This document shows positions 13,901 through 16,900 of a DNA stretch of 64,000 bases, in pieces. The DNA is from Okamejei kenojei (taxonomy: Eukaryota). The notes beneath the pieces are model-generated. The model saw only the letters and a program-made list of their open reading frames with translations, had not been told where the DNA came from and did no database searches. The position numbers and the translations under genes were made by a program. The DNA lies in assembly GCA_035221665.1 (NCBI GenBank), contig CM069168.1, forward strand, positions 17,980,001 through 18,044,000. Reading direction: 5' to 3'. The stretch's first letter is position 1; every line of letters begins with the position of its first letter.

Positions 13901-16900
13901 ATGCACGGAGCCGACGGAGAGTGTCTGAGGTGTCTTGACATAGGTGGGGAGGGATTTAACAAAGGGGGATAGGATGGCGTCAAGGTATGTGGAAATGTGT
14001 TCGGTGGGGCACGAACAGGCAGAGACAATGGGTCTGCCAGGGCAGTCGGGTTTGTGGATTTTGGGGAGAAGGTAAAATCGGGCCGTGCGGGGCTGGGAAA
14101 CGATGAGGTCGGAGGCTCGGGGGGGTAAGGAGCCGGAGCTGATGAAGTTGGTTATGGTGCTCGAGATGGTGGCCTGGTGTTGTCAGTGGGGTCATGGTCC
14201 AGGGGTAGGTAGGAGGAGGTGTCCGAGAGTTGGCGCATGGCCTCCGCTTTGTAGAGGTCGATGCGCCAGACTACCGGCACCTCCCTTGTCGGCGGGTTTG
14301 ATAACCCAGTCTGGGTTGTTACGGAGTGAGTTGATGGCAGTACGTTCGGGGGTGGAGAGATTGGAGTGAGACAGGGGAGTGGAGAAGTCGAGGCGGTTGA
14401 TGTCCCGACGGCAGTTGTGGATAAATAGTTCTAGAGCCGGAAGGCTACGAGGGGGGGTCCAGGTGGAGGGGGTACGTGGGAGACAGGAAAAGGGATCATC
14501 AGTGGGGGGCGAGGACTTCTTCCCGTGGAAGAACGCTGTGAGGCGGAGGCGACGGTAGAAGAGCTCCAAGTCGTGGTGGGCGCGGAACTCATTGAGGTGG
14601 GGACGGAGGGGGACAAAGGTAAGACCTGGACAGCCAAATGATTAGTTTCAGAACTGGCCATTCAGCTCCAGTGAGTATGTTCCATAATCATTGTTCTCAT
14701 CATCCCATATCCTATCCTGACATATACAACCCCTGATTCTACGCCTACTCCACATGTACCTGCACCTTACCAAAGTCCTCCAGCAGGAACTCTTTCTCTC
14801 CAATGTTAAACTTCATGCCTGAGTTCTGAATTACAGGCAGCTCGTAGTTCTTCAGTTTGCTCAGGTTGTTCAGCAGTTCTGTTGGCTTGAGCTGATCTCT
14901 CCATTGAGTGGGGCCACTTCTGCGGGGAAATATACAAAATACAGAACCTTTATTCTCCATGTTCCTGATAATTAGTTTACATTCCTCCACTCACTCTCAA
15001 CCAGCTTCATAGCAGGCAGAGAAGAGAAGTAAATCTCCCCAGTACTTTCTGCCCCTCTCCTCAGATGGGAGTTTAATCTGAGCAAGTGTGAGGTGTTGCA
15101 CTTTGAGAGATCAAATGTAAGGGGAAAGTATAGAGTTAATGGAAAGAAGCTAAACAGCACTTCTTCTTCTTGCCTATAGCATGCACAGCCTAAGGTTGTA
15201 AGACAACTTGTTCTATTTGATCTTCTGTTTGTGTACGCAAGGTTGATTGCATTCATCGAAACAGGGTGGACCACGTGAAGGTTGCAATCTCCCACCCCCT
15301 AAACAGCACTGATGTTGAGAGGGACCTTTGTGTCAAAGACCATTGCTCCCTGAAAGTGGTTATACAAATAGATGAGTGGAAAAGAAGGCATATGTATGCT
15401 TGCCTTCAATCGGTCATGGCATTAAGTACAAGTCAAGAAGTCATATTGCACCTGTATAAGAATTAAGTAAGACCCAAATGTGAAAGAGTAGAGGGGAATG
15501 CTTTAAATGTTATGGAGCCAGGTCAGTGGATATATTTAAGGCAGAGATAGATAGATTCATGATTAGTACGGACGTCAGAGGTTATGGGGAGAAGGCAGGA
15601 GAATGAGGTTAGAAGGGAGAGATAGATCAGCCATGATTGAATGGCAGACTTGATGGGCCGAATGGCCTAATTCTGCTCCTATCACTTATGATCTTAAGAA
15701 GGTGAGAGGAACAAAATGTAAAGGAGATGCATGGGGCAACGCACATACAATACGAACACGCCGACACAAGTGAACCACACACAAAGACACACACACAGGT
15801 GGGTACAATAGTGGCATTTAAGAGGCTTTTAAATAGGCACATGAGAATGCAGGGAATGGAGGAATATGGATCACAGGCAGGTAGAGGAGATTAATTTAAC
15901 GGCATCATGTTTGGCATAGACATGTTGGACCAAAGGGCCCGTTACTGGGCTGAACTGTTCTATGTTCCATGTTCACTACGGGCAAAGCAGCCTCTATGAC
16001 CCCAACACATTGGCCCCACCTTCCTTAACCACAAGGCAGCTCTTAGCATCAACTCCACTTGCAACAACGTTTGGCCCAATTGCACAATACTAAGGTTCTT
16101 CCCATAACACAGAATATTGAAAAAAAAGGAGCATGACTAGGCGTTCCAGCCCCAGTGCCATTCAACAAGAGCCTGCCCGAGTTAATATTATTCTGCAAAG
16201 ATGACGTTTATCCCACGGAGTACAGGTTTGCATCAACTTACATGCAGTATGTTCGGGGCAGGCCACAGTGTGCTCCGTAATGTGACAGGAACCTGTTTTC
16301 CAAATCAATAACCGTCTCACCAATTTTGTCATCCTGAGTGATCATATCGTAGTCATACACCTCAACTTTGAGATCTTTATTCAGTGGAATGGTGGTATAA
16401 AGTTGAAACATTCTGCGAAAATAAATTATACCATTGGAAACATTTGTGTTTGAATAAATTCCCAGAGCCCAAGGTGTTTCCTCCTCCTGTAGGTCAGTTT
16501 CTCGCTACACCTGACAATGATAAGCTAAAGTAATACTGCCATTCTCAAGGTAGGTTGTAAAACAAGAGGAGAAATAGCAAATAACAAAGGAGACATTATT
16601 GCTCCTTTTCCAGTTTGATTATTCAAAGTACATTCACTGCACCACACCAAATTTAAATCTAAGAAGCAGCTTACCTGCCAAACACCGGGTTGATGTTGTT
16701 TGGAACATAATGCTCTCGATCATCAATTAAGACTTTTCCAATTGAGATCTTAATGTAGGAGTCACACTATCAAAAGAATAGTTATAGTCAATTAATTAAC
16801 AATACGTCTGATGGCCTGTTCGTGCTAAGCGCTGCCTTGATGTTCCATAGTTCATTAAACTACTAACACACATTACTACAGTTCCCAGTACCTGAGCCTG

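Follow-up and report, generated by a model that had tools for sequence, protein, structure and literature searches.

A short skate retroposon headed by a predicted minimal HDV-like ribozyme is a bipartite derivative of a Vingi-like LINE, and its sister families point to a likely source of the CPEB3 ribozyme

The window analysed here, a 64,000-nucleotide stretch of the Okamejei kenojei genome (contig CM069168.1, positions 17,980,001 to 18,044,000), contains exactly three copies of a short element, N1, with a mutual identity of 80-91%, and raises the question of where such an element comes from and whether its 5' end could act as a self-cleaving ribozyme. All three copies lie in introns of a gene recognized as a ferlin by domain matches in a scan of 102 of the 306 open frames in the window. 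The first-pass annotation had reported three TSD-flanked copies with tails, and these were recovered, copy B starting at 28288 after an extra T. In copy A, the base predicted to follow the cleavage site (G1) can be read directly as the first base after the 12-bp TSD, as had been claimed. The features are as follows.

2280..61099, minus strand: host ferlin-family gene, with C2, FerI, FerA, FerB, dsrm_Ferlin and Ferlin_C matches in exons
15162..15298, minus strand: copy A of N1, sense in a ferlin intron, flanking exons 16241-16504 and 14748-14990
15245..15298, minus strand: predicted HDV-like ribozyme head of copy A, 17/17 pairs in P1/P2/P3, T for the catalytic C at 15255
15299..15310, minus strand: upstream TSD of copy A, 12 bp, abutting G1
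15150..15161, minus strand: downstream TSD of copy A, 12 bp
28288..28414, plus strand: copy B of N1, antisense to ferlin, P1' deleted
28276..28286 (upstream) and 28415-28425 (second), plus strand: TSD of copy B, 11 bp, an additional T preceding G1
54635..54764, plus strand: copy C of N1, antisense to ferlin, 5' strand of P2 deleted
54623..54634 (upstream) and 54765-54776 (second), plus strand: TSD of copy C, 12 bp
54728..54764, plus strand: 3' end of copy C common with the LINE V2, ~37 nt, comprising the LINE ORF end, a short 3' UTR and the AAG tail

The window also holds two CR1-like LINE fragments (30083-31263 and 39327-40517) in opposite orientation and 92% alike, and a repeat of ~90 bp that occurs some ten times (one copy at 12193-12288). 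For a CR1 reverse transcriptase of the window, the nearest named relatives, at 63-88% identity, come from skate, stingray, chimaera and sawfish, which agrees with a cartilaginous-fish host.

The 54-nt head of N1 consists of a nested P1 (7 bp, with G1 in a pair or a wobble), P2, P3 (3 bp) and a 7-nt L3. A descriptor search found an intact ribozyme head in none of the three window copies, and a scan of the whole window with Rfam gave no match at any of them and no ribozyme hit. Since copy A is without the catalytic C and the heads of copies B and C carry deletions, the complete fold that had been noted was a reconstruction. The fold itself stands, as whole natural copies occur elsewhere: the heads of loci L008 and L219 parse with 17/17 pairs, and L008 reaches a descriptor score of 19.9. 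The J4/2 of copy B is of the CUAA type, as in the LINE V2 described below. Copy A, the sole copy on the sense strand of the ferlin gene, has a head that is perfect save for the C-to-T change at 15255; this change, a single case at a CpG site, is suggestive of selection against intronic cleavage.

Genome-wide, a 31-nt stretch of the N1 3' half gave 2,641 exact matches and its reversed control none, which sets the size of the family at no less than 2,641 copies by exact matching. The densities at which copies were met by chance (3 in 602 kb; 4 in 249 kb; one of the copies coming from 250 kb of arbitrary stretches) suggest roughly 10,000-40,000 copies. Among 28 copies chosen by their 3' half (30 loci minus two duplicates), 25 begin at G1 and the other three fall short by about 8-21 nt. 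A larger set of 101 copies, from which three belonging to a second family had been set aside, showed a TSD in 87, with a length of 9-14 bp in 80 of these and a boundary no more than 1 nt away from G1 in 69. A T is enriched immediately before G1 (45 of 84 copies), reflecting either a target preference or a non-templated base. The catalytic C proposed for the consensus was retained in 37 of the 43 copies sampled without selection for the head, and 15 of the 43 combined this C with the L3 bases and a full set of 17 pairs. Three of the common subfamily changes in the head are not CpG changes and affect J1/2, a P1 A-U pair turned into a G-U wobble, and the second base of J4/2; judging from their tolerated positions, they point to selection on the source elements. 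The fourth of these changes, which sits in the P4 stub, reflects CpG decay.

The origin of N1 was traced with a search pattern joining its tail to a C-terminal Cys knuckle. This pattern had 134 matches, and 26 of the 30 fetched were LINE 3' ends whose last 37 nt are those of N1. A pattern from the 5' UTR of the same LINE, V2, retrieved 29 loci, including full-length copies of ~3.05 kb. V2 is a ~3.05-kb single-ORF Vingi-like LINE whose first ~80 and last ~37 nt are common with N1, and thus the full-length LINE with both N1 ends that the first-pass annotation called for does exist; three full-length copies, L237, L238 and L235, have the N1-type head and are flanked by TSDs. In detail, N1 corresponds to V2 positions 1-80 and ~3008-3044 (of 3049), joined by a patchwork of ~18 nt. 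The parentage is nearly certain, as judged from these shared sequences. All V2 copies seen are broken; their fragments matched the Pfam domains Exo_endo_phos and RVT_1 and gave no RNase H match. The best intact relative (P0001) is a 1019-aa single ORF with 75% identity, for which the listed domains are reverse transcriptase and endonuclease only. This architecture agrees with the definition of Vingi as a compact single ORF carrying an APE endonuclease and a reverse transcriptase but without RNase H (PMC13708176, in excerpt). A reverse transcriptase tree separates V1, V2 and V3 from RTE and CR1 fragments, with outgroups on long branches and no named Vingi or Ingi protein; the label Vingi is a provisional one, taken from the architecture and from the 5' end that V3-V5 have in common with Vingi-2_Gav rather than from a tree with named references.

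A second, independent derivative of V2, with the same head and tail but another junction, was found at 3 of the 29 5'-UTR loci. The 3' half of N1, with the stem and hairpin described for it, folds better than shuffled sequences (z -3.64, 0/200). Of the two, the inner hairpin was created incidentally at the junction left by the deletion, and the second derivative lacks it. In the outer stem, 10 bp join a LINE segment of 5' origin to one of 3' origin, so that this stem would span 3 kb in V2; it has one mismatch in most V2 heads shown and none in the commonest subfamily, and inspection by eye revealed no clear 5'-3' stem of this kind in other Vingi-like elements. With the ends of an autonomous LINE, a deleted coding region, TSDs and an AAG tail, N1 has the features of a SIDE, which supports classing it as a bipartite element formed from a Vingi-like LINE by internal deletion and not as a Pol III-type SINE. 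The earlier description of N1 is supported in so far as it names a ribozyme-headed, non-autonomous element that borrows a LINE reverse transcriptase, and the SINE part of it gives way to a bipartite origin. Bipartite LINE derivatives are already known: NARTc, R2 SIDEs and hedgehog Vingi derivatives.

Two other candidate partners were rejected. An RTE family with a DUF6451 domain has in common with N1 the AAG tail only and no other similarity, and the Vingi-like family V1 has a different 3' end and a different head. Sampled copies of this abundant RTE family (L091-L120) begin at nearly one common 5' boundary, which lies ~160 nt upstream of DUF6451 and gives them the look of a short derivative. 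V1 (L151-L158) is about 3 kb long with 886 first-look candidates; its head has an HDV-like fold of its own, in which the helices differ in sequence and P4 is long, and the motif directly after it recurs in the metagenomic relatives L264, L297 and L323.

The heads of related elements were compared by means of a ribozyme descriptor, which had been relaxed after its strict version passed 2/23. Among 26 5' regions (20 metagenomic Vingi-like loci, from 75, and six heads of this genome), 13 scored at least 16, including 7 of the 20 metagenomic loci, versus 0 of 156 shuffles. All 13 passing heads have a J4/2 of the form C-N-A-A, the C being required by the descriptor itself. Compensatory changes across the 13 heads bear out the pairing of P1, P2 and P3, with three to four pair types per position in P2 and changes on both sides of P1 and P3, in parses that were fitted to the structure; in a control with other bases in place of the C, shifted parses scored equally in three heads, blurring the contrast. 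The catalytic C is conserved in the parent V2, in both derivatives and in all N1 subfamilies. As the heads diverge between families while the pairing and the catalytic C are kept, selection on RNA structure is indicated. Kojima (2018; PMC5786205, in excerpt) lists six LINE clades with ribozymes, Vingi not among them, and names RTE, Ingi, Vingi and R2 as the only makers of bipartite derivatives. A literature search that did not extend to Repbase, Dfam, patents and most subscription papers returned no link of Vingi to ribozymes or to CPEB3 and no description of N1.

The head of N1 and V2 stands out among these by its near absence of P4, a feature that it has in common with minimal or theta ribozymes. 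The distance from P1' to the catalytic C is only 7 nt, compared with 16-38 nt in 11 relatives, in keeping with the near-minimal P4 first proposed. L3, the start of J1/4 and J4/2 are the same as in the CPEB3 ribozyme, as had been noted; however, the Rfam models did not recognize the head, that of L008 aligning with HDV-F-prausnitzii at 14.4 bits (cut-off 44) and with CPEB3 (RF00622) at 12 bits (cut-off 35). The 54-nt head alone folds no better than shuffles (z +0.92), as is expected of a program that takes no pseudoknots. On its predicted fold, the head is likely to be catalytic. The reading preferred here, which we consider probable, is that N1 is a non-autonomous element made of the V2 ends (~80 and ~37 nt), in which a 54-nt predicted minimal HDV-like ribozyme cuts before G1. 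The head of N1 and V2 would fold into this ribozyme in the RNA, the ribozyme would cut the RNA free immediately 5' of G1, and the freed N1 RNA would be mobilised by the reverse transcriptase of a LINE. That N1 is released from host transcripts in this way is plausible.

Three other explanations were weighed against this reading. That N1 is an ordinary Pol III SINE whose head derives from a small RNA and adopts the fold by chance is scarcely credible: the N1 head is the LINE's own 5' end, no tRNA was found at the three N1 loci, and shuffles gave the fold in 0 of 156 cases. Partial resemblances to an A box (6/9 letters) and a B box (6/7) could be cited in its favour, but they are the best matches in N1 and none is canonical, in agreement with the first-pass annotation; the head common with full-length V2 refutes this origin. 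An unlikely though better founded explanation is that the head is mainly an internal RNA polymerase II promoter acting in the DNA, like trypanosome Pr77, with transcription starting at G1 and the ribozyme added or secondary. Pr77 of L1Tc/NARTc serves as promoter and as ribozyme (PMC4035085, in excerpt), a fixed start at G1 is compatible with either mechanism, and some RNA reads lie on the head region of the LINE. Against it, the heads of the families diverge widely with pairing and catalytic C kept, and LINE positions 550-1640 are almost devoid of RNA reads. That N1 is promoter-less, as was first suggested, is a point that we only infer, because the related trypanosome head combines ribozyme and promoter.

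It is also conceivable, if quite improbable, that the P4-less head has little or no catalytic activity and persists as a cap that resists nucleases and binds protein. Its P1'-to-C distance is the shortest of the 13 heads, and some well-folded trypanosome SIDER heads are inactive (PMC4035085, in excerpt). An alternative small hairpin at the gap between P1' and C, which could trap the catalytic C (sequence read by eye), counts against the preferred reading. Many RNA reads, moreover, run uncut across G1 (251 of 952, in a low-identity polyA library). These 952 polyA RNA-seq reads come from ~6% of run X11; only 103 have at least 95% identity, so that the run is perhaps from another species, and 89% of the 952 run into unrelated flanks. 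No pile-up of read starts at G1 was seen among them, which, for decayed or antisense copies in a polyA library, speaks neither for nor against cleavage. What speaks against a dead head is the retention of the catalytic C throughout the parent, derivatives and subfamilies and in most head-unselected copies, and the activity of P4-less minimal HDV-like ribozymes (10.1101/2023.06.13.544163, in excerpt).

A further property of V2 concerns the insertion of its 5' end. Six of 26 V2 3' fragments, picked without regard to the head, are accompanied by an inverted piece that covers LINE positions from 1-13 to 71-297, and two of these pieces end exactly at G1. Their 3' partners start at 2511-2863, so that 2.2-2.8 kb of V2 sequence is missing before the 3' piece; none of the six pieces derives from the middle of the LINE (within 1.5-kb flanks), and no inverted piece extends past G1. 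The inverted-head form was found by eye in 14 of the 29 5'-UTR loci, two of which are also in the former set and one of which is a near-contiguous inversion. Insertions of this type, with the extreme 5' end alone inverted beside a short 3' fragment, occur in several Vingi-like families (L180, L182, L184, L188, L191 and L195; L342, L343 and L347). We infer that the second DNA end may prime early near the RNA 5' end, which would stay at the target site. Such inverted heads suggest why few LINE clades yield bipartite derivatives, a matter left open in PMC5786205 (in excerpt).

The likeness to CPEB3 goes much further in sister families. A search of this genome with RF00622 gave 59 scored matches, of which 30 reached at least 35 bits (best 66.8), whereas no match in the 14 prokaryote controls did so. 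CPEB3-type 5' ends characterize three or more additional Vingi-like families, V3-V5 (L330-L349, L377, L379); on re-scanning, 8 of 8 V3-V5 loci exceeded the cut-off. Vingi-like coding sequence adjoins 13 of the 23 CPEB3-like loci examined, 2 in collinear and 11 in inverted arrangement. L377 is a 3,097-bp element with a CPEB3-like head, an ORF, a tail and a 10-bp TSD, and L379 is a 338-bp bipartite element with a CPEB3-like head and a 12-bp TSD; L331 seems to be a short bipartite derivative as well. V3-V5 match the CPEB3 ribozyme over P1, P2, P3 and part of P4: by eye count, L331 has the CPEB3 consensus base at 44 of its first 46 positions, and the 3' block of L332 matches at 17 of 18, the one difference being compensated in the 5' strand of P2. 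Their 5' end, compared by eye, is common to the gharial Vingi-2_Gav, which agrees at 48 of 50 displayed CPEB3-consensus positions (eye count; PMC5786205 supplement, in excerpt). In the same supplement, the body of the alligator SINE2-1_AMi is a near-copy of the CPEB3 ribozyme consensus.

The accessible part of PMC5786205 makes no mention of CPEB3 alongside Vingi-2_Gav, and no Vingi-CPEB3 link was found in the accessible parts of PMC8256844, PMC10919898, PMC5753468 and a 2026 preprint. A 2021 study (PMC8233481, in excerpt) describes the CPEB3 ribozyme as a single intronic copy known only from mammals, with outgroups lacking. Since HDV-like ribozymes keep just six invariant nucleotides (review, PMC8256844, in excerpt), the identity between V3-V5 and CPEB3 argues for descent, and the direction would be from element to gene because many mobile copies in distant vertebrates stand against one mammalian locus. 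By sequence, then, the sister Vingi-like families of this skate likely show the source of the CPEB3 ribozyme. We regard as probable a joint reading in which Vingi is an unlisted and widespread carrier of HDV-like ribozymes, the CPEB3 ribozyme is a domesticated Vingi 5' end, and its outgroups head cartilaginous-fish and crocodilian Vingi LINEs. The P4-less 54-mer of one lineage would, on the same reading, have spread through introns in thousands of copies that are potentially active, and the insertion of the ribozyme end alone and inverted could readily give rise to a single ribozyme within an intron.

Work on the CPEB3 ribozyme has addressed its role in memory, and near-identical ribozymes heading TSD-flanked Vingi-like LINEs would supply both its origin and its outgroups. 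The 135 nt of N1 would define the minimal cis-signals for Vingi mobilisation; Vingi proteins are used as gene-insertion tools (PMC13708176, in excerpt). With the full fold in 15 of 43 sampled copies, the genome may hold thousands of active ribozymes. If copies are active, heads in sense orientation within introns should be selectively broken, as in copy A.

Several known systems invite comparison. In L1 twin priming, the two pieces are normally near-contiguous. V2 resembles it in having an inverted 5' segment and a non-inverted 3' segment within TSDs (PMC2912911, in excerpt), but inverts the extreme 5' 70-300 nt and leaves a gap of 2.2-2.8 kb. The CPEB3 ribozyme (RF00622) agrees with the N1 head in L3, the start of J1/4 and J4/2 and differs from the N1/V2 head in its helix sequences (12/35 bits). 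Like N1, the drz-Mtgn/theta minimal ribozymes have a nested double pseudoknot without P4 and the catalytic C first in J4/2. They belong, however, to gut phages, often beside tRNAs (bioRxiv 2023.06.13.544163, in excerpt), theta ribozymes sitting by the tRNA 3' end, whereas the N1 heads belong to a vertebrate retrotransposon and the three N1 loci offer a retroposon context without a tRNA. Bipartite Vingi derivatives were already known from the non-autonomous derivatives of hedgehog Vingi-1_EE, alongside bipartite RTE elements (PMC5786205, in excerpt). Compared with NARTc, RIME and SIDER of the L1Tc/ingi clade and with R2 SIDEs, N1 is distinguished by its vertebrate host, its dispersed insertion and its about 10^4 copies, and by a length of only 135 nt with a 54-nt head that has almost no P4.
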